From contig CAYHHA010000001.1 of the NCBI GenBank assembly GCA_964356315.1, forward strand, positions 51,299-115,298: 64,000 bases of DNA. Reading direction: 5' to 3'. This document shows, piece by piece, positions 23,511-41,954 of this stretch (its first letter is position 1; each line of letters opens with the position of its first letter). The stretch comes from an uncultured Gammaproteobacteria bacterium (GTDB lineage: Bacteria > Patescibacteriota > Microgenomatia > UBA10105 > UBA927). Under the pieces are notes generated by a model, which worked only from the letters and a program-made list of their open reading frames with translations, had not been told where the DNA came from and made no database searches. The translations under genes and the position numbers were made by a program.

Positions 23511-25740
23511 GACCTGGTGTTACGGGTAAAAGATTTAATACATTACCTCCAGATAATACCCCGAAATGTAGATGATCTCCAGAGGATGCTCCTGTTTGAT
23601 CCATGATGCCAACCTGAGAAGTTGGTGTGACTTGTATTCCTGGTTTGGCCGGGTCGACGTCTTGGATGTCTATAGCAGAAGAAAGGTGTCCAAAAATTAC
23701 CGTGTATGGGATTCCATCTTTATCGACCCCCGTTACCACCACGTGGTTTCCATATCCCTCGTAACCACTTTTACCACACAAGTTTTTCGGGTTTCCGGTA
23801 TTATCAACACAATCAGAGTGCACACTTGTTACAGTCCCAGTTAGCATAGCATATACAGGAACGCCCCCGCCCCCGGTTGCGATATCAATAGCGTTCTCGT
23901 CTGTTCCCCCACTATGCGAGCCACACGACGCTCTTGGTCCTTGGGTTATATAGCCAGATGTCGGCCAACGGCAATCACCAACACATGGAGTGTATGTGCA
24001 AACAGGATTCGATAATTTTACCGAAGGATCGTTACAATCAATAACACCTCCGCCTGTTTCAGATGACTCGCTACTCCCGCCTGTGCCCACTGAAAAAAAC
24101 TGTGCGGTTCTGGTCTCGTTCAATCTAAACGTTGAGAAAAATATCCAAATGAAAGTGGTTGATACAACCGCTAAAGCCCATATCCTAGCCTGTTTATCAG
24201 CTGGGCTTTCTGTATACGTGGCCCCGAGCATGTTTTGGACAATGCCTGTCACCGCCCCGCTCGCCGCCCGTATAGACACAATGCCCCCGTTTAAAAAACC
24301 AGAAAACGCAGACGCCCCAAACTTTTTAATTGTTCCAGAAAACGCAGATGCTGCCAGTATTGTCCACCCTACCACTGGCGCAAACCCCATTAGCTTTGAG
24401 CCCGCATTTATACCTAGTTTGAGTAGAGCTTCAGTTCCGACCCTTTTTGCCCCCGCACCCAAAACTCCCCGCTCTACCCCTCCCTTTCCTATGTTAAGCG
24501 CCCACGTGGATATGCCCGGATCAAAAGTAAAGTGGAATTCCTCGGGGCGTCTCCCAAACGCCACAGACTTAAACATTCCCTGTGCGCTTGGGGCTTGATT
24601 ACCTGTGATTGCTCCAATAAGATAATTTTGCCCCTCATGCATGATTCTTTCTCGATAATCTGAGGTTTCATCAATACTACTAGCCCAAGCTTTAACCTTT
24701 CCGCCATCTCTTTTTGTCGCTTCATTTTCTGCTTCTTTAAGAATATGGAGCACTTCGCTTTCTGATGCTACCCCTCCTGATTTTTCAACTATCTTTTGCG
24801 CGAGTTTGTCTTTATCCTTGGTAGCTGCAATGATTCTCGCTGAATATGCGTGGGAAATCACACCTTCTTTATTTGATCCTTGGTTGTATTCTGGATACGC
24901 TTGTTTTGCAGGAATGTTTTTAGTATCAGCAGGGGGTTTTCCTGCTATATATTGAATTCTTGACGCGGTAAGAGGATCACCAAAGTTTGATGGTCCAGAA
25001 AATGAGGCATCGATAAATGTGGTAACAAGCTCTGGGGGAGAGTCTGGATGCTCCAAGTACGCTTTTGTAGCTGCTCGTGTCTTTTGTTCTATGTCCCAAG
25101 CATTTTTCTGGAATTCTTTATCTTCAATAATTTTATACGCAAGCTCTCGAGCTTCTTCATTAAGGGCAGTTGATGCTTCTAGTCGCTGTCTGTATGCGTC
25201 ATAAACACCATCTAAGGTCTTGGATTTGGGTGATTTATTCAGTTCTTCAATAATAATCTCGTCCTGTGAACCTAGGGCTGATTGTCGCTGTTTCTTTATA
25301 AGCTCCTTACGATAGCCTTCCATATAAACGGATATATTATCCGTTTGTTTTTTAACCGCCTCTTGTCGTTTCTTTAAAAGAGATGATCGAAACTCTTCAG
25401 GCTGCATCGAAAACGAATTCGCTTCTGGTTTTCTGTCACTCAAAATCTTTATTGCGCTGGTTTGTTCATCCTCCGTGTGGGGGCTTGTTGGAGATTCTTT
25501 GCTTAAAAATGCGTACGGATTTTCAGCGATTTGAAGGGCAACCTCAATAGCTTTCTCTAAGTTGTCAGGGTCAAGTAGCGTGTCTGCAAGATCTATATTC
25601 TGGATAAAAAAAGCCTTTCCTTCTGTATAATGAAATAGGTTTGTTGCAAACCCAGAGGGGGAAATCTCCCCTTTGTTTAACCCCTCAACTGCGCCTGATA
25701 AGTATTGGCTGAGTGGTAATTCGTTATCAATAGTGCTCAT
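23449..25740 (-). CDS. Multidomain membrane protein with C-terminal M23 (LytM-type) peptidoglycan endopeptidase domain
   Basis: C-terminal GYGNHVVV...HLSS...DHLHFGV (HxH) and upstream H-x-D metal-ligand motif. Central Gly/Ala-rich TM segments; about 450-aa charged N-terminal domain. Confidence 0.7.
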   Translation of the reverse strand: MSTIDNELPLSQYLSGAVEGLNKGEISPSGFATNLFHYTEGKAFFIQNIDLADTLLDPDNLEKAIEVALQIAENPYAFLSKESPTSPHTEDEQTSAIKILSDRKPEANSFSMQPEEFRSSLLKKRQEAVKKQTDNISVYMEGYRKELIKKQRQSALGSQDEIIIEELNKSPKSKTLDGVYDAYRQRLEASTALNEEARELAYKIIEDKEFQKNAWDIEQKTRAATKAYLEHPDSPPELVTTFIDASFSGPSNFGDPLTASRIQYIAGKPPADTKNIPAKQAYPEYNQGSNKEGVISHAYSARIIAATKDKDKLAQKIVEKSGGVASESEVLHILKEAENEATKRDGGKVKAWASSIDETSDYRERIMHEGQNYLIGAITGNQAPSAQGMFKSVAFGRRPEEFHFTFDPGISTWALNIGKGGVERGVLGAGAKRVGTEALLKLGINAGSKLMGFAPVVGWTILAASAFSGTIKKFGASAFSGFLNGGIVSIRAASGAVTGIVQNMLGATYTESPADKQARIWALAVVSTTFIWIFFSTFRLNETRTAQFFSVGTGGSSESSETGGGVIDCNDPSVKLSNPVCTYTPCVGDCRWPTSGYITQGPRASCGSHSGGTDENAIDIATGGGGVPVYAMLTGTVTSVHSDCVDNTGNPKNLCGKSGYEGYGNHVVVTGVDKDGIPYTVIFGHLSSAIDIQDVDPAKPGIQVTPTSQVGIMDQTGASSGDHLHFGVLSGGNVLNLLPVTPGLGGCNVSCGDCPGKPISTGG

Positions 25741-25744
25741 GATG

Positions 25745-27679
25745 TTATGGTGTGGTCTTTGTGTCTACGACAGTTTCTGTTGTAAATATTGGTCTGTTTG
25801 ACGGCTTAGGCTGTTGGGAGGGCGTCCCTGATTGTAGTACGGTCGTGCTGTTTTGAACAGGTTGGGGTTGAATCAGTTGCGAGGAGGCTAATTTTTGCGC
25901 CTCTAACTCTTGAGGTTTTGTGGTGATAAGAGCAGTTTCTTGTGGTGATGCTATTACTCTGATGGCGGCATGAGCGGGTCCCGCAAAAAATAACCCCTCT
26001 CCAACCCCTGCGGTCAAAAGGAAATGCCGCTCTCCTTCAGAGAGGAAAAACACCTCAGCTATCCTATCTATGGCCGCGGTTGACTGTTTTAGCAGTATTT
26101 GAAGCGAACTGTTTTGGATAATAGTTTTTCCAAGATCCACAGACATAAAATCTTCCACATCCTGCGTGATGGTGGTAAGACCAAGGTAGTATTTGCGCGC
26201 CCGCTTGGCTATAGAGTTTAAAAATGCCGCAGAATCAGGATACTTCATCATGTACCACGCTTCGTCAACGATGAGAATTCTCTTTTTTTTGCTTTGTCTC
26301 ACTTTTGTCCAGATAAAATCAAGGATCAAGTACATGGCGATCGGCCGGAGCTCGTCTTCAAGGTCCCGTATCGAAAACACCGTGAGTTGATTTCTGATTT
26401 CGAAATTTGTCTGATGGTCAAAGATGCCCACCAAGCTTCCTTTGACAAACTTCTCTATGCGATCGGAAAGCCCGCGAGCGACCACATCCTCCATGCCCAC
26501 AAGCGTTTTATATAAATCTTCCATAAGCGGAGGTTCTTTTGATTGAGTTTCTGGATCTGGGGTAATCCCCTTCATTTTATAGGTAAGGATAAGCGCTCGG
26601 TCCAGAAGCGCATCTTCCATAGGGGTTAGCTTTCCCATGACAACACGGAAAAACCCATGAAGAGATAATATTTTTTGGTTTAACTCGCTTTCTTCTTGTG
26701 TAGAGCCCTTTTGATGGAGGAGCGCTAGATCAAATGGATTGACCTTGGTGGTTGCGCCAAAGTGAAAGCGGATATATTCACCACCCAGTGCATGAGTAAG
26801 TGTTTCGTATTCATTTTCAGGATCAATGACGATGACTTCGGTGTCAAACATAAGACTCCGGAGGATCTCAAGCTTTACGAGAAACGACTTTCCCGCCCCG
26901 GATTTTCCAAACACCACCGTGTTGGCATTTTCCAGCGTAAACCGGTCAAAAATAACCAAGCTATCATTGTGTTGATTGATGCCATACAGGATTCCCTCAT
27001 TTGCCGTCAGCTCAGATGTGGTAAATGGGAACGTGGTGGCAAGCGATGTCGTGTCCATGTTGCGGGTAATAACCAACCTATCTTGACCCATCGGAAGCGT
27101 GGTCTTAAACCCTTCTTCCATTTGGAGTGTTGCGCGTTTTGTAACGATAAGGAGTGAAGAAAGAGTCGCCTCCACTTGTTTGCTTGCTTTGTTGAGGTCT
27201 TCAATGTCTTTCGCGGGTATGGTGACATAGAGTCCAAATTGGAAAAATCGCTGGGCGCCCTTTGCAAGTTCTTGTTGCAGGGAGAGCGCGTCTTCCAAGG
27301 CAACCTGAATAGACGGCTCTATGACACGACCCCGTTTCATATCTGACTGAATAGTCGCTTCCATCTCTCCAACTTTTCTCTTTAGGCTTTCGAGCACCTC
27401 TTCGCTTCTCGTGGGGTAAATATACATAGAAATATCCAGCGTGTGATTAAAGGAGATCAGTGGCTCTAGCCAGTTCGCACTGACGAAGCGCGGGTATCCA
27501 GAGATAAATAGCGTGCGGTAGTAAAAATTGCCAATTTTTAACAGGTCAAAATCCACCTCTATAGAGGGCGGGGCGATGAGATCATTTATGCTTATGGGAC
27601 CCGTTATTCTTAGAGGCGCTTCTAGCGCTTGTTGTGGCTTGGGGTTGATAAATTGTTGTAAGGACGATGTAAGTGTCAT
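25745..27679 (-). CDS. VirB4/TrbE/TraC-family type IV secretion ATPase
   Basis: Walker A VVFGKSGAGKSFLVK; Walker B ILIVDEAWYMM (the DEAW signature typical of VirB4); Pro/Gln/Thr-rich C-terminal tail. Confidence 0.7.
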   Translation of the reverse strand: MTLTSSLQQFINPKPQQALEAPLRITGPISINDLIAPPSIEVDFDLLKIGNFYYRTLFISGYPRFVSANWLEPLISFNHTLDISMYIYPTRSEEVLESLKRKVGEMEATIQSDMKRGRVIEPSIQVALEDALSLQQELAKGAQRFFQFGLYVTIPAKDIEDLNKASKQVEATLSSLLIVTKRATLQMEEGFKTTLPMGQDRLVITRNMDTTSLATTFPFTTSELTANEGILYGINQHNDSLVIFDRFTLENANTVVFGKSGAGKSFLVKLEILRSLMFDTEVIVIDPENEYETLTHALGGEYIRFHFGATTKVNPFDLALLHQKGSTQEESELNQKILSLHGFFRVVMGKLTPMEDALLDRALILTYKMKGITPDPETQSKEPPLMEDLYKTLVGMEDVVARGLSDRIEKFVKGSLVGIFDHQTNFEIRNQLTVFSIRDLEDELRPIAMYLILDFIWTKVRQSKKKRILIVDEAWYMMKYPDSAAFLNSIAKRARKYYLGLTTITQDVEDFMSVDLGKTIIQNSSLQILLKQSTAAIDRIAEVFFLSEGERHFLLTAGVGEGLFFAGPAHAAIRVIASPQETALITTKPQELEAQKLASSQLIQPQPVQNSTTVLQSGTPSQQPKPSNRPIFTTETVVDTKTTP

Positions 27680-28341
27680 GTTCTCGTATTTGTTAGTGCG
27701 TTTTTTATAGTCTCATCATCTGGCATCGGGACACCCGCGTTATAGGTGATAAATAACAATCTCACAAGCTGTTCATTGGTGAGTTGTCTGGCATTAAGCC
27801 CAAGTCTTATGAGCAGTCGAAGTACGTGGTCCCGTTTTGGATTGAGCGCTGCGAGTGCCTTTTCAAAAATATACTCTTTTTTAAATGGAAGCCCCCGTTT
27901 TTTGCTACCAAAAAACATGCCCATAGATGCGCCAAGTTCTAGGCTGGAAAAGGGGATGATAATATAGAATTTTTTATCGAGCACATCTTTCTCTTTGACC
28001 GTCGCTGCAACAAAAATTCTATAGTCATGTATGCTTTTTGATAATTTTGGATTTGTCTGCTTTCTTTCCTGATCTTCCAGTAGCCGGAGATATGCGGTGA
28101 CGTCTTTGTGTTGTGTTCTGATAAGAAGTTCGATAGGAAACGAAAGAGAATTGAGTAGGCCTGCGTACGCCGTGATGATAGAATCTTGCTCTTTCTCAGA
28201 AAGCAGTCCAAAGTTTACTGCAGAGGCAGTAATAACAAGGGAGCATGACCCATCTGTATAGAGAATGATGTTTTGTTCTATGGTCTCTATTTCTGTAAAT
28301 ATCTGAGTTGTCGATTTAATTGGTATTATTGTTTCCGCCAT
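27676..28341 (-). CDS. Hypothetical cytoplasmic protein, translationally coupled to virB4-like gene (start set at MAETIIPIK)
   Basis: The ORF-track N-terminus (FMVHGSWFMVHGSW) is a translation of the (ATGAACC)7 array, so the start was moved to ATG at 28339-28341. 4-nt overlap with the downstream ATPase gene. Confidence 0.4.
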   Translation of the reverse strand: MAETIIPIKSTTQIFTEIETIEQNIILYTDGSCSLVITASAVNFGLLSEKEQDSIITAYAGLLNSLSFPIELLIRTQHKDVTAYLRLLEDQERKQTNPKLSKSIHDYRIFVAATVKEKDVLDKKFYIIIPFSSLELGASMGMFFGSKKRGLPFKKEYIFEKALAALNPKRDHVLRLLIRLGLNARQLTNEQLVRLLFITYNAGVPMPDDETIKNALTNTRT

Positions 28342-28357
28342 ATTCCCATCCTTTTCT

Positions 28358-28406
28358 ATGAACCATGAACCATGAACCATGAACCATGAACCATGAACCA
28401 TGAACC
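28358..28406. repeat. Perfect (ATGAACC)x7 heptanucleotide tandem array
   Basis: Read directly: atgaacc repeated seven times, 28358-28406, between two minus-strand T4SS-locus genes. Confidence 0.95.
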
Positions 28407-28411
28407 CCGCG

Positions 28412-29872
28412 CTATGTTCTGTTTCCAAACAACTCTTTTGTCAGCTGGTCTCTCGTGATTTGCTTTTGACTTTTTGTGATAATTTCTAGAGCTGGGACAA
28501 TTGATCCGTTTAGGGTCACCTGAACTCTGTCAAATGTGTAGCGTTGCCTCGGGTCTTCTATCTCAACAAAATACACACCGTTTGAAAGTGGGGTGGAAGC
28601 GGCAAATTGTCCAAGCCGATTTGTTTTGAGCGCTCGTACAGGTATACCTTCTTTGTCTTTCACTGTTACGAGAACGCCTGGTAGAAAATTATTATCGCTA
28701 TCTTTGGTGATTCCGGTGACGACGTTTGGAAATGTGGTAAGCCTTGGGAGCCCTGCTGTTACCGCTCCCTCCGGTGTGATAATTTTTACCGTTGGTTGTT
28801 TTTGTGACTGAAGCGGGATGGTTGGTTTTGGGACTTCAGGTTTCGCAATCGGTGGGAGTGGTGGGATTGGCGCCTGTGTGGTTATCTGCTGTATTGGCGC
28901 AGCCGCCTGTCTTGTGGATGTGGCTTGAATCTGCTGTTGTAATTTCGCCATCTCTCGTCCCATTTGGTCTTTTTGCTCTAACACTTCTGTGAGTTGTTTT
29001 TGTAGTTCCAGTATCCGAGATTCGGCAATAGATTTATTTTCTAGTTCGTGGGTGAGAGTAGAGAGTTTTTCTTCGAGTATTTCTTCCCTTTTTACTACCT
29101 CCTGAATCTTTTGTCTTTCTGGGTCGGGAGGTTTGACGACGGGTGGCATAGAGAGATCCAGCCTGGTTCCGACAATCGATGGGGTCTTGACGACCGGCGC
29201 CTGACTGGGTGTTGCGGGAGCAATGCGTGGTGCGATGGTTGGTTGCGGGCCTTTTATCGCAAAGAGCGAAAAAAACCAATCAAATAAACCAAGTTTCTTG
29301 GCCGGTGCGGGCTGCGAGAAACCGCGTTGGATTGGTTGTGTTTGGGGTAGAGTGGTTTGTTGGCGCGGGGCGTACATATTTGTTATGACGCTTGTCGTTG
29401 TTTTTTGCGGGGCGGATTGTGGCGCCACGCTTGTTCTGCTTTGTTGTGTTGGTTGGGCTTGTTGAGTCACCAAAGTTGGTATTTTTTGTGCGACCGGGAT
29501 AGTCTGATGTGTTGGGGCGAGGTATTGGCTTGCTCTCGCCTCGGTGAATACTGGGTTTTGAAGAGGCGGAGCTGCCTTTTTTTCTACTGATTTTTCCCAC
29601 ACATAGAGCGTGGGATTGTAAATGTTTTTTATAAAGGATAATGCCCACACGTCCATTGGTCTGTCCTCTATTGGAACAAAAGCAAATCCGACTCCACCCA
29701 AGGCAAATATGGTGGTAAGTGGCCACGTGAAGAAAAACGGCAACGGAAGCTTATACGATATATATGCGAGGATTAATCCACCCGCGAGGTATCCAAACTG
29801 CTTTATGGTCATGTCGCCTATAAGGCGGAACTGAAATGTTGTAACATTTTGCGGGACAGGATGTTGCTCCAT
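28412..29872 (-). CDS. T4SS-associated membrane protein: VirB3-like two-TM N-terminus, Pro/Gln-rich linker, coiled coil, C-terminal beta domain
   Basis: Two N-terminal TM helices (FGYLAGGLILAYISY, PLTTIFALGGVGFAFV). Long P/Q/T-rich low-complexity region, heptad-like ELQKQLTEVLEQKDQMGREMAKLQQQIQ, and a C-terminal carboxypeptidase-regulatory-like beta sandwich (GVLVTVKDKEGIPV...). Confidence 0.4.
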   Translation of the reverse strand: MEQHPVPQNVTTFQFRLIGDMTIKQFGYLAGGLILAYISYKLPLPFFFTWPLTTIFALGGVGFAFVPIEDRPMDVWALSFIKNIYNPTLYVWEKSVEKKAAPPLQNPVFTEARASQYLAPTHQTIPVAQKIPTLVTQQAQPTQQSRTSVAPQSAPQKTTTSVITNMYAPRQQTTLPQTQPIQRGFSQPAPAKKLGLFDWFFSLFAIKGPQPTIAPRIAPATPSQAPVVKTPSIVGTRLDLSMPPVVKPPDPERQKIQEVVKREEILEEKLSTLTHELENKSIAESRILELQKQLTEVLEQKDQMGREMAKLQQQIQATSTRQAAAPIQQITTQAPIPPLPPIAKPEVPKPTIPLQSQKQPTVKIITPEGAVTAGLPRLTTFPNVVTGITKDSDNNFLPGVLVTVKDKEGIPVRALKTNRLGQFAASTPLSNGVYFVEIEDPRQRYTFDRVQVTLNGSIVPALEIITKSQKQITRDQLTKELFGNRT

Positions 29873-30040: not shown

Positions 30041-32227
30041 ATGGAGTCATCATTTGTGCTATTGGAAGTAAAAAACTCCCGGGAAAGTGAAGAAACGCCA
30101 GCTGCGATGGAGCAGGTGTATGCGGCGCTCGGCGCGACAGCGGGGCATGGTGGTTTTCTTGCTTCGTTATTCGGCCCGCGTCACGCTCCAAAATTTTTCA
30201 GCCTTGAACTAGTCTCTGTAAACTCACGACTGCATTTTTTCATCGGCATGCCATCTCTTTCTCAGTCATATGTAGAGAGTCAGATCACCGCGCAGTACCC
30301 GAAAGTGCTTTTATCTCTTTCTCCAGACTATGTTCCACATTTTTTTACACTGCCTCACACCAGTGCGCATCTGACGCTCTCAAACTCGTTTTATTATCCG
30401 CTTAAAACGTATAAAGATGTAAAAGAATTGGATGTATTGGCAAGCGTGTTAGGACAAATGGCAAAATTACCAAATGATGAAGCTGCCACAGTACAGATTT
30501 GGATATCTCCAGCAGGCCACAGCTGGCAACACACAGCGGCTTCTGTTGTTGCTCGAGGGATTCCCGACCTAAGCTCTCCGACCCCTGGTCGTATGAAGCC
30601 ACACCCGCATGCGCGACTTATTGAAACAAAAATTGCTCAGGTGGGGTTTAGCGCAGCAGTACGAATTGCGACGGTCGCTGCAAACGAACACCGAGCAAAC
30701 GAACTACTTCAATCTTTAGGTGGAACGTTTGGTGTATATACATTGGGTGGAGGAAATTCTCTACAACTCACAGAACCAGCATTTTGGAATAAAAAGCGTC
30801 TAGAAAAAGCAATGATTACCAGGAGTGGTGATTTGCTTCCCCGGAACCAAATATTAAACGCATCTGAGCTTGCATCTTTGTGGCACCCGCCTGGGCTCAC
30901 GCTCTCAATGATCAAAAACATCTCATGGGGATCGCAACTCACTGGGGAGGCTCCAGAAAATTTACCCATCGCAACAGACAGCGAAGAAGAGAAAAAAGAA
31001 ATAAATTTTTTCGCCAAGGCGGAACATAAAAATAAGCTGACGACTTTCGGTATTAAAAAGGATGATCGGCGACGACATATGTATATTATTGGGAAGACGG
31101 GGACTGGAAAATCTACCATGATTGCGAATATGGCAATCAATGACATGAAAAATGGAGAAGGCGTTGCTGTCGTTGATCCACATGGAGATCTTTGTGATAT
31201 CCTTTTGGACTATGTACCGTCTCACCGAATAAATGATGTTGTCTATTTGGACCCCGCTGATATTGAGTACCCGTTTCATTTAAATCCACTGGAGGTTCGA
31301 AATCCGGCATACAAAGAGCTCGTCTCCTCTGGCATCGTGTCTATCTTCTATAAACTCTATCATTTGAGTTGGGGGCCGAGACTCGAATATATTTTACGAA
31401 ACACAATTTTAACTCTGACGAACGTTCCTGGTAGCACGCTTTTGCAGGTTCCAGAACTTCTCACGAACGAAACGTATAGAGCAAAAGTTATTGAAAAAAT
31501 GACAGATCAAGTATTAAAAAATTTCTGGCTCAATGAGTTTGCAAAAATGAGCCCACAAATGCGTTCAGAAGCGGTCTCTCCAATTTTAAATAAAGTTGGG
31601 CAGTTCTTGTCATCGCAAACAATCCGAAATATTGTGGGCAGTAGCGTCTCAACTATTGATCTGGAAGACCTGATGAATCAAGGGAAAATTGTTCTCGTTA
31701 ATTTGTCACAAGGGAAACTCGGTGAAGATACGAGCGCACTTTTGGGAGCCATGATCATCACAAAAATGCAACTCGCCGCCATGAACCGTGTGTATCTAGC
31801 AGAGGGAGATCGGAAAGATTTCTACTTGTATGTCGATGAATTCCAAAATTTTGCCACAACCTCATTTATAAAAATTTTGTCTGAAGCCCGCAAATACAGG
31901 TTGGACCTTATTCTTGCAAATCAGTACATAGGGCAAATAGATGAAGATGTGCAGAGTGCTATTTTTGGCAACGCCGGATCTATTATCTCTTTTGGCGTTG
32001 GAGCCGCAGACGCACGACTCCTCACCCGTGAGTTTGGAGAAAAATATGAAGAGAGCGAATTGGTTGCTCTTGGAAATTATGAAACAATGTTAAAGCTCTC
32101 TATCGATAACCACATGAGTTTGCCATTTAGTGCGAAAACCCTCCCGCTTCCAAAGTCCCGAAACCAAAATAGGGAAAAGGTGATCCGCGCCTCGAGGGAA
32201 AGATATACGAAGAGAGTTGTGAAATAA
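30041..32227 (+). CDS. VirD4/TraG/TraD-like (FtsK/HerA-superfamily) P-loop ATPase, putative type IV coupling protein
   Basis: Walker A YIIGKTGTGKST followed by VAVVDPHGD (T4CP-like), Walker B YLYVDEFQNFA; 728 aa; no clear N-terminal TM, so the call is family-level only. Confidence 0.55.
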   Translation: MESSFVLLEVKNSRESEETPAAMEQVYAALGATAGHGGFLASLFGPRHAPKFFSLELVSVNSRLHFFIGMPSLSQSYVESQITAQYPKVLLSLSPDYVPHFFTLPHTSAHLTLSNSFYYPLKTYKDVKELDVLASVLGQMAKLPNDEAATVQIWISPAGHSWQHTAASVVARGIPDLSSPTPGRMKPHPHARLIETKIAQVGFSAAVRIATVAANEHRANELLQSLGGTFGVYTLGGGNSLQLTEPAFWNKKRLEKAMITRSGDLLPRNQILNASELASLWHPPGLTLSMIKNISWGSQLTGEAPENLPIATDSEEEKKEINFFAKAEHKNKLTTFGIKKDDRRRHMYIIGKTGTGKSTMIANMAINDMKNGEGVAVVDPHGDLCDILLDYVPSHRINDVVYLDPADIEYPFHLNPLEVRNPAYKELVSSGIVSIFYKLYHLSWGPRLEYILRNTILTLTNVPGSTLLQVPELLTNETYRAKVIEKMTDQVLKNFWLNEFAKMSPQMRSEAVSPILNKVGQFLSSQTIRNIVGSSVSTIDLEDLMNQGKIVLVNLSQGKLGEDTSALLGAMIITKMQLAAMNRVYLAEGDRKDFYLYVDEFQNFATTSFIKILSEARKYRLDLILANQYIGQIDEDVQSAIFGNAGSIISFGVGAADARLLTREFGEKYEESELVALGNYETMLKLSIDNHMSLPFSAKTLPLPKSRNQNREKVIRASRERYTKRVVK

Positions 32228-33556: not shown

Positions 33557-33816
33557 ATATCCGAATATCGCCCCGGGCAGAAAATGAATTTAAGAAACTT
33601 CCCAAATTTGACCAGATTGCCATTGCTCAAAAAATTCGATCACTTGCTGGCCCCTCTGTCTTGGTGGAAGAGAAGCTTTCCGGGTTCCAATTCATTTTTA
33701 GGGTTCGGGTGGGAAGTTATAGAATCGTATACAAAAAAACAAACGATGAGCGATATATCGTCCTTATCGGACACAGAAAAGATATATACAAAAAACTTGA
33801 AGATTTGTTGAGATAA
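33553..33816 (+). CDS. RelE/ParE-family type II toxin (mRNA interferase)
   Basis: ...FRVRVGSYRIVYKKTNDERYIVLIGHRKDIYK: canonical RelE/ParE C-terminal core. Confidence 0.75.
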   Translation: MNIRISPRAENEFKKLPKFDQIAIAQKIRSLAGPSVLVEEKLSGFQFIFRVRVGSYRIVYKKTNDERYIVLIGHRKDIYKKLEDLLR

Positions 33817-33843
33817 ATTTTATAAAGATTCTATAATAGTACC

Positions 33844-33946
33844 ATGGATATGGGAATGTCCTTAGAATGCAGGTTGAAATTATCATATAATGTATGAGAA
33901 ATCTCGTGAAGAGCAGTATGTTCTTTTGATTCACCATAGAAAAGAT
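33844..33946 (+). pseudogene. Frameshifted, truncated second copy of the RelE-family toxin gene
   Basis: Frame 1 gives MDMGMSLECRLKLSYNV* and frame 2 continues NYHIMYEKSREEQYVLLIHHRKD. Together these parallel FRVRVGSYRIVYKKTNDERYIVLIGHRKD of the intact toxin immediately upstream. Confidence 0.5.
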
Positions 33947-34082
33947 AGCCACAAAGCCCCAGGGGGTATTTGTGAGAGATTAGATTTTTACCTCCTTCCT
34001 CTAGGTCGTAGCACTTGCAATGAAAAGCGAATTGCGACCCAATCGTCTTTGAGATACAATTGATAGGTATTCGGAGAAATGT

Positions 34083-37000
34083 ATGAATGAAATAGATAAG
34101 GGGCCATGGAGATTTTTCAAAGATCTAATAAATAAAATACGTAAAGAGCCTATTAAACCACCTGAAAAACCGGTGTATAAGAAAGTAGCCGAGATACGCC
34201 CGCGGAATCGTCCAGAAAGAGTCCTCAAAAAGGCTGACACAGAAAATCTTCAAAAAAAAGAGGTTTCAAAAAAGATAGATAATATTGGTAGGCCACCCTC
34301 CCCAAAAGAAGCTATTGATATATTAAGCGACGCTACAGCGTCAAGCACAGTTGAAGGAGCAAGGCTCGTGTTGGGTCTCCAGCAACTTAAATCTGTTGAT
34401 TGGTCAGCTGTTGACAAGAAAGCAGAATGGCAAAAAATCAACACTGCAATTCTCGGATTGCCTAAAACAGAGTCTCTTACAAGCGCGGATGATATTTTCC
34501 TAAGACAAGCTGCGGAAAAATATGCATCTGTATTTTATTATCAAAATGTTGCAGAAATTGCGGCGGTTCCTGGTTCCGTTGATTGGGTGGGCCCACATAA
34601 AGATTTTGCCGAAGCTCATGCAAGGGATTTGACAGAGCGTACCGCACAGATACAGCGAGCTGAATCTGAAGGTGTAAGCGCACAAAACATTTTGAAAGAC
34701 CTGGATGATGGCCATAAAGATAATCCTCAAACTGTTGAAGAGATAGGTAAGCTTGCCTGGCCCCCCAAACAATACACAGCGGATGATGGATCTAGGCGTA
34801 TTGGAGCGCTATTGGGGGCTTCGGATTATGCCGATTGGATACAAACTGCAGCAGGAAAAACTGATAATCCGCAGGTGATTTCGTTTCTTGTAAACTTGGC
34901 GGAATCTGGCCCAGATGCATTAAAGGATCCAAAATTTTTGTTCACAAAGGCAGTGCAGTTTCGAGAAAAATTAATAAAACCAATGTCGTCAGATGCTGCC
35001 TCTCGTGGCGGTCTTGATTCAATACTTCAGGACATGACAAATCAGATTCAGAAATGTGTTAAAGATGGTGCTCCTTTGTTTGAAAAAATTGGTCCAAACG
35101 AGAAAATGGGACAAATTATTGGCAAGTTTCCGGTGGTAGATTTAGAAACAAAATCAAAAATAGATACGAGCAAATGGTTTGTTAAAGATTCTGGTGGAAA
35201 AGTACACTTTTATGATGATACCACAGGTAAGATAGATGTGCCTGCAGGGTCGCCTATCGCGGATCAGTTGAACGGCTTGGCTGAAGAATTTAATCGGTTA
35301 CAGAACCAAATTAATTCAGAGCCAGAGTCTCTGGTCCAAGGTAATTTGAATCTAAGGGGCACCCGAGAAAAATTGGATAGTATTATGTATGAAATTCGAG
35401 CTAAAGGAGGGGTTGTTCCAGGCATGGCGGTTGAAAAATATCAAGAATTACTGGGCCTGGAGATTGGGTTATATGATCACGGACATGATTACACTGGCTT
35501 AGGCCTTGATGAGCAGTGGAAGGTTGCCGTGCGAGAAAAGGGATTCACGGCTGTAGTAGAAGAGCAAATGCGAATTATTGAAAAGAATACAAGATCTCAT
35601 GAGGGGGATATGTATCAAGGTCAGGCGGCCGCACAAACAATGCAGTATCTGTTTGGATGGTCACAGTATCCTGGGTATATCAATGAATGGACGATTGAAT
35701 TGTCCCGAAAAGGTCTAAATAACGAGCAAATTGCAAAACGATTAAAAGAGATTCTTGACGAGCGAGATATGGCCTCAAAAATCATAAACGCTCGCAAGCA
35801 GCTATTAAGCGCCACCACGCTCTATCATGCTGCTGGGATTCCGTCTGAAAAAATGCCTCAAGTCATGTCTCCAATAGGAGATGAGGGACCACAATTTTTA
35901 TTGACCATCAATGATGGAAGAATTGCAAAAATTCGCGATTTTCTCGATGAATATTATAACAGTGGACAATTCGTGGAAGGTACAGATGATACGCGTCGAT
36001 ATTATGCCCAGACATTTGAAAAACTTAGTAAGGATATGGAGCAGGATCTTGAATATGCAAGTGACTTATTTGGGCTTACACCTGGTCAGATTGAAGAAGC
36101 AGCTTTTCTTGCTGATGAGCTTGCGACTATCACCGACCGAAAAGTAGTGATGATTGGAAAAGGAAAAGCACCTCAAGAGGACAATGTTCACCATATGTAT
36201 TTAGGTGGTGACAGAGCAGAGGAATATGCCTCTGATAGAGAATTCGGCAGGTTTAAGTTTTTCCGTTGGGCATTTTTAGACAACGTGGCTATCCATATGT
36301 ATGAATCTTCAAGTTACTTTGTAGCAAAAATGAGGGGTGCAGAAAAGGTGATAAGCGCGCGCATCGCTGAGGCAAGTAGCCGTCCGGGAGGTAAAGAAGA
36401 GCTGGTAAAAGAATTGTGTTTTATCACAGAGCGTCATATGAGTCTGCCAGAGCCAGACCGAATCAAGACTATAGAAGATCATTTGAAAACACAATTTCGT
36501 AGTAAAGACATGAGAGCAAATAAGAGAACAAAGAATGTTCTTTGGGCAAAGAAAATACCAAAAACGCTTGAAGAAGCGGCGAAGGATGAAAAATGGTTAA
36601 AAGAGCGTATGATGATTCAAGTGGGTTCCAAACAATATGATCGAAGTTTGATGTCTTATACATACTACGACTCCGGGCCCATGGTGTCTGAGGTCTTGGG
36701 GCAGATTCGGGAAATGTTTGAGCCTAATATTGCAGACACGCTTGGGATTAATATGAGCGTCAGAGATGCGTATGCTAATCTCCTTGGAGCAAAAGATCAT
36801 AGTGCAAAGCATCACGCTGAACATGCTCTTAAGCATGAGTTGCAACGGGCTGCAAAATATAATCCTTTAGAGCTCTTCCGAGCTCATGTAGCCCACCACG
36901 ATTTTTATACAAAAGACTGGTTTTCGGGTCTTGATAAAAATATAATGAATGCATTTTTATCAGATAAAGAGATGGCTAAAGGCATACAGAGCTCAGGTGA

Positions 37001-38033
37001 TCTGGTGAAAGCGCTAGGCAAACGACTGATAGCGATAGATACACTCGTTAAAGACGAGGTAAAACAGAATAAATTTATAGCCAGAATTGACTGGAGTAAA
37101 GATTTATCCGCAGAGCATTCGTCCATTGTAAGAAGAGTTCTTCAATCTTTCTCTGGCGCTTCAGGTGGAGGGGATTTGGAAATTGGGTATGAAGAATTTA
37201 CGGGTCTCATGCAAGATATTTCAACACAAGTGGTGGGACAGGACTATTCAATTCACCGCATGATGGATATCGATTACTGGGACTATGGGTATCAGACAGA
37301 ATCTGTGCATGATAGCTGGTTGGATCTACTTGAACAGCCAGATAAGTATGGAAATAAGACGGGTCACACTGATCTTATAAAATTATCACACAGGCTGGGT
37401 GCAAAAAATGGATACGGATCAGGGTCTTTGCTGGTTCGAAATCATGGAGATAAAGAACCGGCAAGAAAGTGTGGTGATTTGATGCTTCAGTTTTATACAA
37501 AAGGCATGGATCAAAAATCACTCATGGAAGCGATTAAAGAAATTGCATTTCAAGATCGTATGGTTTATGGGTCTCCTTGGGACAAACGATCTGTAATCTA
37601 CTTGCTTTCGGGACTATTAGATCAAGCAGCTGTAGACTCAGGATCTGAATGGACATTTGGGACTCTTGATTTTTTTGCACCTAAAAATTCGCCACTTCGA
37701 AGATTGCTAAATGAAAAAGCTGAGGGGTGGACTATACATGACCGATATGAATTCGTGGAAATTATGGAAAATCAAATCCGATCTAATCTTCATGAGATTG
37801 ACCACGAAATGGCAGATGGATTTTTGCAATATGTGAAAATAAATATGAGTCTCCCTGGTTTTAATAAAATAGCAAACGGTAATGTGTGGAAGAAACGCAT
37901 GTATACTGTCGGCGCTATCGCAGCTGTTTCAGGTGCAATTGCGCTAGGAGGTGTGTTTTTAAGCGAGGCAAAAGTAACTTCTCCTGGGTCAGGCGGTGGT
38001 GGCGGGGATGAACATGTGCCACAACATCATTAG
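34083..38033 (+). CDS. Giant (1316 aa) acidic hypothetical protein with C-terminal TM anchor and poly-Gly tail; T4SS-locus cargo or structural component
   Basis: No recognisable domain. Single C-terminal TM (VGAIAAVSGAIALGGVFL) followed by SPGSGGGGGDEH; convergent with the VirB6-like gene. Confidence 0.5.
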   Translation: MNEIDKGPWRFFKDLINKIRKEPIKPPEKPVYKKVAEIRPRNRPERVLKKADTENLQKKEVSKKIDNIGRPPSPKEAIDILSDATASSTVEGARLVLGLQQLKSVDWSAVDKKAEWQKINTAILGLPKTESLTSADDIFLRQAAEKYASVFYYQNVAEIAAVPGSVDWVGPHKDFAEAHARDLTERTAQIQRAESEGVSAQNILKDLDDGHKDNPQTVEEIGKLAWPPKQYTADDGSRRIGALLGASDYADWIQTAAGKTDNPQVISFLVNLAESGPDALKDPKFLFTKAVQFREKLIKPMSSDAASRGGLDSILQDMTNQIQKCVKDGAPLFEKIGPNEKMGQIIGKFPVVDLETKSKIDTSKWFVKDSGGKVHFYDDTTGKIDVPAGSPIADQLNGLAEEFNRLQNQINSEPESLVQGNLNLRGTREKLDSIMYEIRAKGGVVPGMAVEKYQELLGLEIGLYDHGHDYTGLGLDEQWKVAVREKGFTAVVEEQMRIIEKNTRSHEGDMYQGQAAAQTMQYLFGWSQYPGYINEWTIELSRKGLNNEQIAKRLKEILDERDMASKIINARKQLLSATTLYHAAGIPSEKMPQVMSPIGDEGPQFLLTINDGRIAKIRDFLDEYYNSGQFVEGTDDTRRYYAQTFEKLSKDMEQDLEYASDLFGLTPGQIEEAAFLADELATITDRKVVMIGKGKAPQEDNVHHMYLGGDRAEEYASDREFGRFKFFRWAFLDNVAIHMYESSSYFVAKMRGAEKVISARIAEASSRPGGKEELVKELCFITERHMSLPEPDRIKTIEDHLKTQFRSKDMRANKRTKNVLWAKKIPKTLEEAAKDEKWLKERMMIQVGSKQYDRSLMSYTYYDSGPMVSEVLGQIREMFEPNIADTLGINMSVRDAYANLLGAKDHSAKHHAEHALKHELQRAAKYNPLELFRAHVAHHDFYTKDWFSGLDKNIMNAFLSDKEMAKGIQSSGDLVKALGKRLIAIDTLVKDEVKQNKFIARIDWSKDLSAEHSSIVRRVLQSFSGASGGGDLEIGYEEFTGLMQDISTQVVGQDYSIHRMMDIDYWDYGYQTESVHDSWLDLLEQPDKYGNKTGHTDLIKLSHRLGAKNGYGSGSLLVRNHGDKEPARKCGDLMLQFYTKGMDQKSLMEAIKEIAFQDRMVYGSPWDKRSVIYLLSGLLDQAAVDSGSEWTFGTLDFFAPKNSPLRRLLNEKAEGWTIHDRYEFVEIMENQIRSNLHEIDHEMADGFLQYVKINMSLPGFNKIANGNVWKKRMYTVGAIAAVSGAIALGGVFLSEAKVTSPGSGGGGGDEHVPQHH

Positions 38034-38050: not shown

Positions 38051-39586
38051 TTATTCGTGATCAACTCCTGGCGGTGGTTTCCCAGCTCCAAGCATTTGAG
38101 GAGCCGCTTTCTCTCCCTTGATGTGCTTCATATAGTATATAAGGGAAGATATTTGAGATCCATAAGAGAGTGCACTTGCCAATGCTCCACCACCTCCACC
38201 TCCAGCTCCTGCGAACGCAGGCTTTGCCTTCAGCGCTTCTTTTACCGATCCAGCTACTGTTGGGATGGCAAAAAGAACACCAAGGGATACAAGTGATGCT
38301 ATTTGTGCCATATCTCCTGAGACTGGTGCATAGGGCGGTGTCCATAGTTTTCCTGCGGAGGCGTTGTTGGAAAAATGGGTAAACACATTTGCAAGCATAA
38401 ACATCCCGGCTCCGATGGGGAACACAGCTAGATTAGAGATCAGATTATTAAACCACGAAGAAAATGCAGTGCTCCCTGGTATGGCCTCCATCATAAGTTG
38501 AAGTGGCGCAAGAAGGAGCGAAAGGATAATTTGAATATAAGACATAAGGAAAAATGCCACAAGGCGAACAAACAGGAAAATAATCGCAACAGTAAGGATA
38601 ACATGAATTATAGGAATGCTTAGGCTTGCTATTCCAACTGGAGCTGCGATTAGTGCGGCCCCTGGCACTGTTGCTAATGCAAGAGCGAAAATAATTCCCC
38701 CAACAGAGAGGTATTTTGCCGTGGCCTGCGCTACAGCATTCGTCCCAAAAAGTATTTTATCTACATCCCAAGAGAGGTTGAAGAAATTTTGCATCAATCC
38801 GCCCTGTCCATAAAGCTGTTCAGGTGTTTTAAATCCTTGAGAGAGTGCAACCCCCTGAGGAGCGTCAAGTAGCGTTGTCGACTTGAATAGCGCAATCAAA
38901 ATATAGATAATCACATACATAAAATCGATCAAAATACCTACAATGGCATAAGAAAATGTGATGAGGATAAGCGCTAGGACAACTTTAGGGATAGCATTTT
39001 GTGCGGTGACGACCGTATGAGGGTCAATTTTTTTCCGGAACATGATCATAAAACCAAGTACAATCATGACAATTGCCATCAGTAAGTATGCGACGTTTCG
39101 AAATGCTTTCCAGACAGGCAAGAGGGGAGCCATGCCAGAAAAACCAATGCCCTGGCCTTGTGCAAACGCCTGTTGGGGTATAAATCCGAGCGTGCGACCT
39201 GTGTCTGCAATCCAGAGTCCTGTATCTGCGGGTCTTTGTGTAAATGTTAAAGCCACAACGTCATTTAATTTCCCAAATGCGCTGTTTTGTATATATGTTT
39301 GCATATCTGCTGGATTGTCTGTGCAGTCAAAGCCAACTCCTAAGCATGACAGTGAATATAATCCATAAATATTGCTTGAGTGTACAGATGATTCCGAATT
39401 CATGGGTGTACCTTGTAGAGCTTTGCCAAATTGGGAAGGAGGCGGAAATTTCCAGGACTCTGCAGCGTGTACAGTGACAGTCAAAGAAAAACAGAGTGCT
39501 ATGCCAGCTAGGTAGAGTGATATGGTGTGTAAATATCTCTTCATGCTTCCTCTATTATTGAGTAATTGTGTTATGGCGTCAATCAT
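38051..39586 (-). CDS. VirB6/TrbL-like polytopic inner-membrane protein (putative T4SS channel component)
   Basis: Signal peptide (LYLAGIALCFSLTVTVHA), about 120-aa periplasmic segment, then six or more TM helices and a Gly-rich tail; directly upstream of the pilin gene array. Confidence 0.4.
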   Translation of the reverse strand: MIDAITQLLNNRGSMKRYLHTISLYLAGIALCFSLTVTVHAAESWKFPPPSQFGKALQGTPMNSESSVHSSNIYGLYSLSCLGVGFDCTDNPADMQTYIQNSAFGKLNDVVALTFTQRPADTGLWIADTGRTLGFIPQQAFAQGQGIGFSGMAPLLPVWKAFRNVAYLLMAIVMIVLGFMIMFRKKIDPHTVVTAQNAIPKVVLALILITFSYAIVGILIDFMYVIIYILIALFKSTTLLDAPQGVALSQGFKTPEQLYGQGGLMQNFFNLSWDVDKILFGTNAVAQATAKYLSVGGIIFALALATVPGAALIAAPVGIASLSIPIIHVILTVAIIFLFVRLVAFFLMSYIQIILSLLLAPLQLMMEAIPGSTAFSSWFNNLISNLAVFPIGAGMFMLANVFTHFSNNASAGKLWTPPYAPVSGDMAQIASLVSLGVLFAIPTVAGSVKEALKAKPAFAGAGGGGGGALASALSYGSQISSLIYYMKHIKGEKAAPQMLGAGKPPPGVDHE

Positions 39587-39969
39587 GGTGATTGCAAGAT
39601 ATTAAATTTTGTTATGGTGTCTGTTGTCCCCGTGAATGATCCAATCACCCGGAGGATCAGATATGCGCTCACAATGACGACGAGTCCGATAATGGCATTG
39701 GTTAACGTTCCCTTGGCTTGTTCGAGCTTTTTTTGATCTCCTTGGGAAAAAAGAAACGAAAACCCACTAACGATGAACATGAGAAATAATGCTACAGCCC
39801 CAAGGGAAATGGCTGTTTTCACAAAATTTCGAAACAAATTTTCGAGCGACCCGATGGTTGCGACATCTGTTCCTTCGTATGTAGTTAGGGTTTCAGCTAT
39901 GGCATAGGGAGCAAGTCGTAGAGACATAATCCCGAGGGCTATATAGCTTGCAATTCTCTTTGCAGTCAT
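39583..39969 (-). CDS. TrbC/VirB2-like T4SS pilin paralog 1
   Basis: Signal/TM, then FSQGDQKKLEQAKGTLTNAIIGLVVIVSAYLIL: the shared pilin motif (x-GD-x-K-x3-A-x3-I-x2-A-x-IGL + second TM). Confidence 0.6.
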   Translation of the reverse strand: MTAKRIASYIALGIMSLRLAPYAIAETLTTYEGTDVATIGSLENLFRNFVKTAISLGAVALFLMFIVSGFSFLFSQGDQKKLEQAKGTLTNAIIGLVVIVSAYLILRVIGSFTGTTDTITKFNILQSP

Positions 39970-40092
39970 AGGTATATTGTAGCACGTACACTCTGGGATT
40001 ATGAATAATGAGCTGAAACTATTTAGGAATACTTACGTACACATCATGATATTTCCATGATTCATTCTTCATGATTCCCGATTCAGATTGTT

Positions 40093-40422
40093 TTAATAAG
40101 GCTTTGGGAAGTTTACTGCTCCACCGATGATGGTGACACCCAGGAAGTTCTGGATAAGGAGCATGACCGCCCATGCTGCGCCGACGATGATAAGTCCGAC
40201 GATGGCATGCGTGATTTTATTTCGGGCCGCTTCCATGCCTGCTTTGTCTCCACCTGAGGTGATCCATTGGATTCCTCCGAGTATGAGAAAGAAAAACGCA
40301 AGAAGTGCTGCGATAATAAGGAGTGTGCCAACGAGTGCACTAATAAGCTGGCCTATGTCGTTTATTTTCATGTTTGTCGGTTGGCCAATTGTGATTTGTG
40401 GATCTGCTGCAAATACTTTCAT
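40093..40422 (-). CDS. TrbC/VirB2-like T4SS pilin paralog 2
   Basis: ITSGGDKAGMEAARNKITHAIVGLIIVGAAW. Confidence 0.6.
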   Translation of the reverse strand: MKVFAADPQITIGQPTNMKINDIGQLISALVGTLLIIAALLAFFFLILGGIQWITSGGDKAGMEAARNKITHAIVGLIIVGAAWAVMLLIQNFLGVTIIGGAVNFPKPY

Positions 40423-40501
40423 ACGTTCCTCCTATTTTATATATCTATATTATATCCTATTTCTTATTGTTGCGCAAAAAGATAGAGACTGTCAATGCCA
40501 T

Positions 40502-40849
40502 TTATCGTCCAACCGTTGGAATTTGGAGGCTTTTGAGATCGAGACCGAAGAAGCCAGCGACCAACGTTGTCAGTGCAAACGAAGCGCCTACAATGATGAT
40601 ACCGATAATTGCATTAGTGATATTGTCTCGTGCCGCCTCTAGCTTCGTCTTATCTCCTCCAGCGCTAATCCATGATATGCCACCTGTAATCAGGTAAACG
40701 AATGCCAATAAAAATCCTGCAATAAATAGTGCTCCAACAAGACTGCTGATAAGTGACCCCAATGCTTTTCCGCCCTCTTGATAATTCCCGCCACCAATAG
40801 CGCGGGGGAGGATAGGGTTGGTAAGTGCTGCAAGAAATTTTTGGTGCAT
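40502..40849 (-). CDS. TrbC/VirB2-like T4SS pilin paralog 3
   Basis: ISAGGDKTKLEAARDNITNAIIGIIIVGASF. Confidence 0.6.
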   Translation of the reverse strand: MHQKFLAALTNPILPRAIGGGNYQEGGKALGSLISSLVGALFIAGFLLAFVYLITGGISWISAGGDKTKLEAARDNITNAIIGIIIVGASFALTTLVAGFFGLDLKSLQIPTVGR

Positions 40850-40850
40850 A

Positions 40851-41240
40851 TTATTTTAATTTGAATAATTCGTTTGTCGCCGGTCCTAACAATATATCGT
40901 ATCCGAAAAATTGTCCCGCCACAGCCAAAAGGCTCCATGATCCGATGACAATGACAAGGCCGACAAACGCATGAGTGATGCGGTCTCTGGCTGATGCAAT
41001 TTTTTTGGCATCTCCTCCAGCGCTGATCCACTCGTATCCTGCGAACAACAGCATGAATAAAAACCAAATGCTGGCAAATACGGTCAGCATGCCAACGATA
41101 TCGCTCACGTAATTTGTAATCGTTTCGACAGGATTGCTTATCGCTTTTCCCGCGAATGGTCCCAGTTCTCCGCCGTTTCCCTCTCCGATTGTTCCCAGAG
41201 ATTGTCCTAACGCTACTGATTTAGCAAGAAGTGTTGTCAT
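40851..41240 (-). CDS. TrbC/VirB2-like T4SS pilin paralog 4
   Basis: ISAGGDAKKIASARDRITHAFVGLVIVIGSW. Confidence 0.6.
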   Translation of the reverse strand: MTTLLAKSVALGQSLGTIGEGNGGELGPFAGKAISNPVETITNYVSDIVGMLTVFASIWFLFMLLFAGYEWISAGGDAKKIASARDRITHAFVGLVIVIGSWSLLAVAGQFFGYDILLGPATNELFKLK

Positions 41241-41241
41241 A

Positions 41242-41607
41242 TTAGTTTGGACCGTATATTGACGGGCTTAGGATGGCGCTTGGGCTACCAAAGAATACTT
41301 GACCCATCAGAGCGGCGATTGCAAAAGACCCCACAATCAACACAAGTCCGAGAAGTGATTGGTAGATCCTGTCCCATGCCGCGGATACTGACTTAGAATC
41401 ACCACCAGCGTTCATATACTGGAATCCTGCAATGATAAAGTTGAAAAACGCAAAAATCCCCGCAACCACAAACACCAGTCTTAAAATATTACTGAGAAAT
41501 AGGATAAGCCCGCCCCCTGCGCCTGCTGCTCCAATAATATTTTTATATTGTGCCGGTAGCGGGTTTGTGACCGTTCCGATAATATCGTCTGCGTAAACTT
41601 TAAACAT
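41242..41607 (-). CDS. TrbC/VirB2-like T4SS pilin paralog 5 (start set at internal Met to avoid overlap)
   Basis: MNAGGDSKSVSAAWDRIYQSLLGLVLIVGSF; the ORF-track N-terminal 30 aa overlap the next gene. Confidence 0.5.
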   Translation of the reverse strand: MFKVYADDIIGTVTNPLPAQYKNIIGAAGAGGGLILFLSNILRLVFVVAGIFAFFNFIIAGFQYMNAGGDSKSVSAAWDRIYQSLLGLVLIVGSFAIAALMGQVFFGSPSAILSPSIYGPN

Positions 41608-41618
41608 ATAATTAGCAT

Positions 41619-41954
41619 CTACCTCGGTAAAATACAAAGTGTATTTACACAATCTCCCTTTAAACCTGTTAGGGTCTCTATAATCTGAATGATCCAAAAC
41701 GATCCGAGTACAACGATAAGACCTATGACTGCGCCGGTAATTGCCTTTTTCCCCGACTCCATTTTTTTCGTATCTCCGGATCCTGCAGCTTGTATCATAC
41801 CAAATCCAGCGAAAACTAACAAAAGAAACGCGATAACACCTGCGAGCATAAAAGCATTTGGCACGATCACCGACACCAAATCACCTAGGTTGGTAAACTT
41901 TGTTATAGAGGGAAATTCAGTTCCAATATTCACAGCTGCAAATACGCGTTCCAT
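41619..41954 (-). CDS. TrbC/VirB2-like T4SS pilin paralog 6
   Basis: IQAAGSGDTKKMESGKKAITGAVIGLIVVLGSF. Confidence 0.55.
   Translation of the reverse strand: MERVFAAVNIGTEFPSITKFTNLGDLVSVIVPNAFMLAGVIAFLLLVFAGFGMIQAAGSGDTKKMESGKKAITGAVIGLIVVLGSFWIIQIIETLTGLKGDCVNTLCILPR

Follow-up and report, generated by a model that had tools for sequence, protein, structure and literature searches.

We describe a family of large proteins encoded at type IV secretion system (T4SS) loci of Microgenomatia (Patescibacteria, candidate phyla radiation), starting from an open reading frame (ORF) at 34083..38033 (+) in a 64,000-nucleotide stretch of contig CAYHHA010000001.1 (assembly GCA_964356315.1, positions 51,299 to 115,298; hereafter the window). 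Judged from similarity and gene position, more than 100 large ORFs belong to one very divergent family, and the window protein is not an orphan. The family is undescribed and is attached to a known kind of system, the Microgenomatia T4SS. Our tentative reading is that the protein is a lineage-specific, tail-anchored accessory subunit of this system that faces the cytoplasm.

Conserved position and family membership

The ORF is intact, starts with an ATG that has GGAG 6 nt ahead of it, and encodes a protein of 1316 residues plus a stop codon (BIG, hereafter the large protein). An identical protein is on record (P0001), as is a near-identical variant (P0002) in which three adjacent residues differ within the disordered N-terminus, an uninformative difference. 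Upstream, at 33808..33837 (+), the sequence TTGAGA-18-TATAAT agrees with a sigma-70-like promoter at 11 of 12 positions, a consensus match alone. The ORF had initially been annotated as lacking any recognisable domain, and searches of Pfam, NCBIfam, PHROGs, PADLOC and PDB sequences were indeed all empty for the large protein; no homology to a housekeeping family emerged from Pfam, NCBIfam or PDB. Its convergence with the VirB6-like gene was also confirmed, the gap to that 511-codon polytopic gene at 38051..39586 (-) being 17 nt.

The label "orphan" given in the initial annotation is true of a word-index search alone, in which neither the single sequence nor a 35-sequence family alignment retrieved anything but the protein itself. 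An exhaustive phmmer search of 1.84 billion representatives returned 19 proteins including the query, and the best of the 18 homologues beyond self is 34% identical over ~1140 residues and has a matching gene context. When the contexts of VirB6-like homologues were inspected, ORFs of 1349-1400 residues with no Pfam domain were seen in the matching convergent position, and these share 20-30% identity with the window protein. Scanning genomes with a VirB6-like alignment as the seed yielded 80 loci, 66 of which carry an ORF of 700-1517 residues convergent with the VirB6-like gene. In nearly all of the others the contig ends too early or the motif selected the wrong ORF, and a single locus (L064) is a clear exception without a large convergent ORF. 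A metagenome scan seeded with VirD4 added 29 complete loci, every one of which has the large ORF. Across the two collections, then, ~95 related Microgenomatia loci have a large ORF in this place, including distant ones that lack VirD4 and housekeeping neighbours, which upholds the location inside a secretion locus that had first been proposed.

Iterative searching with a hidden Markov model (HMM) ties at least 44 of the genome-locus proteins to the window protein, and an HMM built from 107 non-redundant proteins, whose selection had rested on position and on exhaustive phmmer matches, recovers almost all of the metagenome-locus proteins. Similarity can be partial: the protein of locus L002 is 30% identical to the window protein, with the match confined to the variable N-terminal region. 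None of 35 family members contains a Pfam domain, the family profile has no PDB sequence match, and no description of the family was found in the literature on Patescibacteria T4SSs.

Architecture and predicted structure

The N-terminus of the large protein is hydrophilic and basic, unlike a signal peptide, as the initial annotation had held; no wall-anchor motif and no LPXTG are present in the protein, and the tail beyond its hydrophobic helix is acidic or Gly-rich. An N-terminal amphipathic helix motif (WRFFKDLINKIRK, residues ~8-20, 34104..34142 (+)) is of a kind that opens many family members. It is followed by a basic linker rich in Pro, Lys and Glu (residues ~21-75, 34143..34307 (+)), which is probably disordered given its composition and the low predicted local distance difference test (pLDDT) score, <50, at the start of the model. 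This pairing of amphipathic helix and disordered Pro/Lys/Glu-rich linker is typical of the family, with LFKRLSEAAKKA and LTKLFKKKP as further examples of the motif. The protein had been called acidic, which is only weakly so: its isoelectric point (pI) is 5.96, and residues 1-100 are basic (pI 9.9).

Residues 71-1270 were modelled with AlphaFold from a 19-sequence alignment (mean pLDDT 76.9; predicted template modelling score, pTM, 0.67). The model is all-alpha, with helices 4-36 residues long. Confidence is low to medium over a variable helical N-terminal region (residues ~76-479, 34308..35519 (+)) and ~90 over a conserved all-alpha body (residues ~480-1255, 35520..37847 (+)). The N-terminal third of the protein varies and is a mosaic between relatives. 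Conservation is concentrated in the ~450 residues ahead of the hydrophobic helix, and the body holds the near-invariant residues G848, R1119, D1123, G1163, R1169 and S1203. No fold match was found in PDB or BFVD: Foldseek against PDB gave generic alpha-solenoid matches only, with template modelling (TM) scores of ~0.1, and BFVD matches had TM scores of ~0.08, with weak alignments that include tape-measure proteins (E ~0.03).

The single C-terminal transmembrane segment that had been proposed was recovered in the window protein. Strongly hydrophobic windows start solely at residues 1272-1281, and the helix at residues ~1273-1293 (37899..37961 (+)), a putative tail anchor, has a Kyte-Doolittle (KD) hydropathy of 1.99 over 19 residues. 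After it comes the tail SEAKVTSPGSGGGGGDEHVPQHH (37962..38030 (+)), with a Gly run at 37992-38006. The protein had been said to end in poly-Gly; the run is near the C-terminus, but the actual last residues are DEHVPQHH, and the terminal His-His belongs to the tail feature described below. Other members likewise have one C-terminal hydrophobic helix each, frequently of the RKYWWV type, and a charged tail beyond it, for which the median is 14 residues; a second strongly hydrophobic 19-mer occurs in only 1 of the 107 proteins. KD hydropathy reaches at least 1.5 over 17 residues in 59 of the 107, and many helices have ~14-16 hydrophobic residues, e.g. YWWVPILATLAIAA. On average the family has 2.9 Lys plus Arg before the helix versus 2.05 after it, and a net charge of +1.7 versus -0.3. 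This modest bias in flanking charge favours a cytoplasmic location of the body.

The VirB6-like neighbour

The convergent 511-residue polytopic protein has no Pfam match and no PDB sequence match. Its AlphaFold model (30 sequences) has a pLDDT of 72, and the top six PDB matches of that model are all TrwI/VirB6 chains of R388, with probabilities of 0.87-1.00, target-normalised TM scores of 0.35-0.47 and E-values of just 0.02-0.17. The predicted fold thus resembles that of VirB6, and we call the protein VirB6-like at the fold level. VirB6 has been remarked in print to be hard to detect in Microgenomatia, and the absence of sequence support for the label fits this difficulty.

The G6-containing tail first ascribed to this protein turned out to be partly misplaced. 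A run of six glycines is present (residues 462-467, 38186-38203), but it lies 44 residues from the C-terminus within a disordered linker, and the VirB6-like protein itself ends in GVDHE.

A C-terminal tail shared by the two families

Gly-rich C-termini were sought in 3342 ORFs of at least 80 residues from the window and ~75 related loci. Gly-run tails are nearly confined to the large-protein and VirB6-like families, so the shared terminus noted in the initial annotation is upheld for these relatives. In relatives both proteins end in GGGGH or GGGGHH, with many VirB6-like proteins ending in GGGGH. Among 107 members of the large family, His is within the last two residues in 62, against a His background of 2.1%, and a Gly run precedes the end in 38; the terminal His persists even without a Gly run. 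Over 67 loci, a Gly run is found in 22 large and 28 VirB6-like proteins, a terminal His in 39 and 26, and the two together in 21 and 19, respectively. Both proteins carry a Gly run in 17 loci compared with ~9 expected, a comparison made across phylogenetically non-independent loci. We conclude that the tail is a protein-level feature common to the large and VirB6-like proteins; the recognition or processing signal suggested in the initial annotation gained no support.

Rates of evolution

Two regimes of sequence divergence are seen in the large protein. In the closest loci, identity to the window proteins is 71-91% for VirD4, 80-84% for VirB4 and 70-97% for a 109-residue pilin, whereas the large protein is 22-32% identical in most, over partial alignments, and has no tblastn match in 3 of 8 loci. 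Pairwise comparisons within the window's own clade give 40-52% identity for the large protein where VirD4 is 94-96% identical. In a sister clade, whose large proteins have the signature KYWWV...GGGGH, the large protein keeps pace with VirD4 and the VirB6-like protein (e.g. 95/95/95% identity), and its ratio of nonsynonymous to synonymous substitution rates (dN/dS) is ~0.01-0.05, indicating purifying selection. The regimes were compared between loci L049, L051, L050 and L060 and loci L003, L005, L008, L009, L011 and L012; dS is saturated, and either positive selection or relaxed constraint may lie behind the higher dN of the window's clade. From these comparisons we conclude that the gene has a function and is constrained, with a speeding-up of its evolution along the lineage of the window.

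Proposed role and alternative explanations

We tentatively favour the view that the large protein is a tail-anchored accessory subunit of the Microgenomatia T4SS. Synthesised without a signal peptide, it would be fixed in the membrane of the producing cell by its one hydrophobic helix at the C-terminus. The all-alpha body of ~1270 residues would then remain on the membrane's cytoplasmic side, next to the VirB6-like channel subunit and to the ATPases VirB4 and VirD4. Contact with the machine would be made by the conserved C-terminal part close to the membrane. The variable N-terminal part, with its amphipathic helix, may serve to bind partners that themselves vary, for instance substrates or regulators, so that the protein could act as a scaffold or adaptor. 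Several observations count for this view. A large ORF and the VirB6-like gene stay paired where synteny at large has broken down: distant loci lack the VirD4, cytidylyltransferase, Yip1 and HMG-CoA reductase genes but retain the pilins, VirB6-like gene, large convergent ORF, PrgI, TraC-like gene and VirB4 as a block. The VirD4-like identity and low dN/dS in the sister clade are the pattern expected of a machine part; the lack of a signal peptide, the one C-terminal helix and the Lys plus Arg bias argue for tail anchoring; and the confident all-alpha model with conservation next to the helix, as well as the co-occurrence of tails with those of the VirB6-like protein, are in keeping with a subunit.

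Other results weigh against this view. In close relatives the conserved gene order also spans dnaA, dnaN, the cytidylyltransferase, sigma factor, Yip1 and mevalonate-pathway genes, so that adjacency alone is weak evidence there. Large ORFs at the same position in distant loci have no significant profile similarity to the family (best hhalign probability 23-36%). The helix is weak or short, with KD hydropathy below 1.5 over 17 residues, in 48 of the 107 members. As read from the flanking charges, the tail of the large protein would be outside the cell, and a cytoplasmic location is probable for that of the VirB6-like protein, which comes after KEALKAKP; similar as they are, the tails may thus sit on opposite sides of the membrane. 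Finally, dN in the window's clade is 0.44-0.63 for the large protein versus 0.03-0.05 for VirD4, a 10- to 15-fold faster rate, and this divergence looks more like that of a host-interaction factor than that of a scaffold.

Two of the distant large ORFs, in L073 (8521-11190 (-)) and L081 (11202-15122 (-)), lack both family similarity and a C-terminal hydrophobic helix. They still terminate in VGGGGGRH or GGGGGHGGGHGGH.

The rapid divergence, which in the window's clade exceeds that of every other gene of the locus, together with the mosaic similarity between relatives, raises the alternative that the large protein is a dedicated T4SS effector, recruited by VirD4 and exported to a host bacterium, in whose membrane the helix would insert. 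In the window the gene for the VirD4-type coupling protein (30041..32227 (+)) is upstream on the same strand, and in relatives virD4, the cytidylyltransferase gene and the large ORF follow directly in succession, an arrangement seen in most loci. The missing signal peptide would suit an effector equally, as would the concentration of conservation toward the C-terminus, which is also found in effectors with C-terminal recognition domains; in addition, Patescibacteria T4SSs probably export proteins and have no known substrate (PMC10633639, PMC12102498). Yet the large ORF behaves like a core part, being single copy and fixed in position in nearly every locus, staying in place in distant loci where VirD4 is missing from the surroundings, and evolving at a VirD4-like pace under strong purifying selection in the sister clade. 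The same tail is carried by the VirB6-like machine subunit, which makes it unlikely to be an export signal. No effector signal domain was found either: XVIPCD, BID and relaxase domains were absent from Pfam results for the window protein and 35 members and from NCBIfam results for the window protein. We therefore consider export as an effector unlikely, if a serious alternative.

A related and rather doubtful idea is that the Patescibacteria T4SS finds in this family the dedicated substrate, or the factor for host contact, that it has so far lacked, and that its Gly-run-His end is a new C-terminal motif for docking to the channel. Such docking could, as speculation, take the form of metal-bridged pairing or of binding to the M23 peptidase encoded in the locus. 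Some M23 enzymes cut Gly-Gly bonds. The M23 gene is beside VirB4 in tailed and untailed loci alike, and this co-occurrence gives a link between peptidase and tail no support.

The conserved housekeeping order in close relatives would also be expected if the large protein were a membrane-anchored protein unrelated to secretion that remains beside T4SS genes through the conserved gene order of small genomes, and no T4SS domain was detected in it. This is improbable, since the large ORF is placed between the VirB6-like and PrgI/VirB4 genes in distant loci where the housekeeping neighbours are absent, the Gly-run-plus-His tail is common specifically to the VirB6-like protein, and the family is restricted to the lineage, with 19 matches among the 1.84 billion representatives.

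For the tails themselves, an origin at the nucleic-acid level was examined because the same peptide encoded by two convergent genes makes an inverted repeat. GGN codon runs at the convergent gene ends could pair as a GC-rich hairpin and serve as a bidirectional terminator. Where both genes have a Gly run, the predicted junction folds are indeed more stable than those without (mean -29 versus -13 kcal/mol), and several minimum-energy folds pair both runs. However, in loci with both runs, shuffling the synonymous codons costs the junctions no stability (mean z +0.3), which means that third codon positions are not matched. The window junction is no better than its shuffles (z -0.27, +0.81 and +0.77), and no terminator-like site was called there. 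Tails are also kept across gaps of 130-490 nt and where one partner alone has a tail, and the terminal His is retained without the Gly run. Thus, the shuffle, gap and terminator tests do not support a bidirectional-terminator origin of the Gly ends, and we regard it as very unlikely.

The remaining suggestions of the initial annotation, a surface adhesin, a pilus-tip protein or a phage-tail-like tape-measure protein, draw on the size of the protein, its site beside the pilin array and the weak BFVD tape-measure alignments, and are hardly credible given the absence of a signal peptide and wall anchor, a charge bias favouring a cytoplasmic bulk, the lack of any PHROG family, BFVD and PDB TM scores of ~0.1 or less, a compact model whose longest helix has 36 residues, and surroundings of T4SS and housekeeping genes with no phage genes nearby.

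Comparison with known systems

The nearest analogy to a subunit of this kind is with extended VirB6 proteins (TraG of the F plasmid, RvhB6 of Rickettsia, and SEML1_0013/SEML1_0011 of Southlakia epibionticum), in which a large hydrophilic helical domain is tied to VirB6, as would be the case here. In Southlakia two T4SS proteins of ~1000 residues, SEML1_0011 and the VirB6-like SEML1_0013, are essential (PMC10633639 Tables S1 and S2; review PMC12857230), and their C-terminal domains are described as ARM-repeat-like and all-alpha (PMC10633639 Tables S1 and S2). The Southlakia order of peptidase, VirB4, TrsD, PrgI, large protein, VirB6 and pilins parallels that of the window locus. The likeness to the SEML1 domains is drawn from published descriptions, and by analogy it would count for the accessory-subunit reading. 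Unlike in the extended forms, the VirB6-like protein here is short (511 residues) and the helical protein is a separate convergent gene product with its own C-terminal helix. A split extended VirB6 was considered, using a 1091-residue polytopic protein from a distant VirD4 locus; hhalign gave a probability of 0.08 and the family HMM has no match to it. That protein is probably unrelated, and a split VirB6 stays an analogy only.

CagA of Helicobacter pylori offers a different parallel. It is a largely alpha-helical protein of ~1200 residues without relatives, which has no signal peptide, evolves fast and is encoded in a T4SS locus. The large protein thus shares with CagA its size, helical make-up, T4SS locus, fast evolution and missing signal peptide. 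The translocation of CagA as an effector is proven, however, and a transmembrane helix is missing from its C-terminus; PDB sequence and fold searches reveal no similarity between the two.

In topology the large protein resembles bacterial tail-anchored proteins, which lack a signal peptide and carry, in their final ~45 residues, a lone hydrophobic helix with a short stretch beyond it. These are a topological class and not a homologous family, and as a member the large protein would be unusual for its size and for the weak helix of many of its relatives. Sorting signals of the LPXTG/sortase, GlyGly-CTERM/rhombosortase and PEP-CTERM types also pair a short motif with a hydrophobic helix at the very end of the protein, with glycines in the case of GlyGly-CTERM. 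In those signals a motif is followed by the helix and a basic cluster, whereas in the large family the helix is followed by an acidic or mixed linker, the Gly run and His. A sortase substrate or PrgB-like adhesin, GlyGly-CTERM and PEP-CTERM were accordingly rejected on the reversed order and the lack of LPXTG and of a signal peptide.

Other features of the locus

Chromosomal monoderm-type T4SSs of Patescibacteria are located near dnaA and contain pilin arrays (PMC12102498), and the window locus is such a system. Its gene order starts with dnaA, dnaN and a 347-residue ORF without a known match. A minus-strand group (23449..29872 (-)) follows, encoding an M23 peptidase (763 residues), VirB4 (644), a TraC/TrsD-like protein (250) and a PrgI/VirB3-like protein (486). 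Next, all on the plus strand, are VirD4, a 23S rRNA intervening-sequence protein, a cytidylyltransferase-like protein, a ParE toxin-antitoxin pair and the large ORF. The VirB6-like gene and, downstream of it, six tandem T4SS_pilin (PF18895) genes (39583..41954 (-)) are on the minus strand, and then come a sigma factor, Yip1 and mevalonate-pathway genes.

The dnaA and dnaN genes (19784-22470) directly adjoin the T4SS genes, matching the published closeness of the T4SS to the replication origin. GC content climbs from ~0.36-0.40 to ~0.44-0.47 at ~20 kb of the window. The 347-residue ORF (22467-23510 (-)) closes the M23-VirB4 string. Neither Pfam nor NCBIfam gave a match to it, and L087 has a positional counterpart of 330 residues; it may be another unrecognised T4SS component. 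The TraC/TrsD-like ORF (27676-28428) resembles the N-terminal part of VirB4 and overlaps the start of the VirB4 gene (25745-27679). The N-domain of VirB4 thus has a gene to itself, a situation also reported in Patescibacteria for TrsD. The PrgI/VirB3-like protein (28412-29872), at 486 residues, is far above the usual length and diverges fast (44-61% identity), and its C-terminus has a weak Pfam match to a CarboxypepD_reg-like beta-sandwich.

Between virD4 and the large ORF, the gene for the 23S rRNA intervening-sequence protein (PF05635, 32227-32640) directly follows virD4. It is found in L005 and not in L002, L003 or L087, and this patchy presence marks it as a variable insertion in the string. 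The antitoxin and ParE-family toxin genes (33317-33816), between the cytidylyltransferase gene and the large ORF, are absent from L002, L003, L005 and L087. Just downstream of them, a 57-codon ORF (33890-34066; MYEKSREEQYVLLIHHRKD...) resembles the remnant of a second RelE/ParE-type toxin. Within the pilin array, the 109-residue pilin (40093-40422) is 70-100% identical between genomes, mostly at ~90% or above, and the adjoining 128-residue pilin ranges from 23% to 99%. The mevalonate run (43683-50957) comprises HMG-CoA reductase, an HMG-CoA synthase-like protein, thiolase, GHMP kinases and a decarboxylase; it is kept beside the T4SS locus in relatives and is unusual for bacteria.

Significance

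In one tractable species the Patescibacteria T4SS is essential for epibiotic growth; it has no relaxase and its cargo is unknown (PMC10633639, PMC12102498). Genomes of these bacteria are ~1 Mb in size, and a 4-kb gene without known relatives is kept in the T4SS locus across the whole class. In so small a genome, a retained gene of this length is very likely important to the working of the machine or to its cargo. The large protein is thus a concrete candidate for structural and interaction work, and its Gly-run-plus-His end offers a simple mutational handle.

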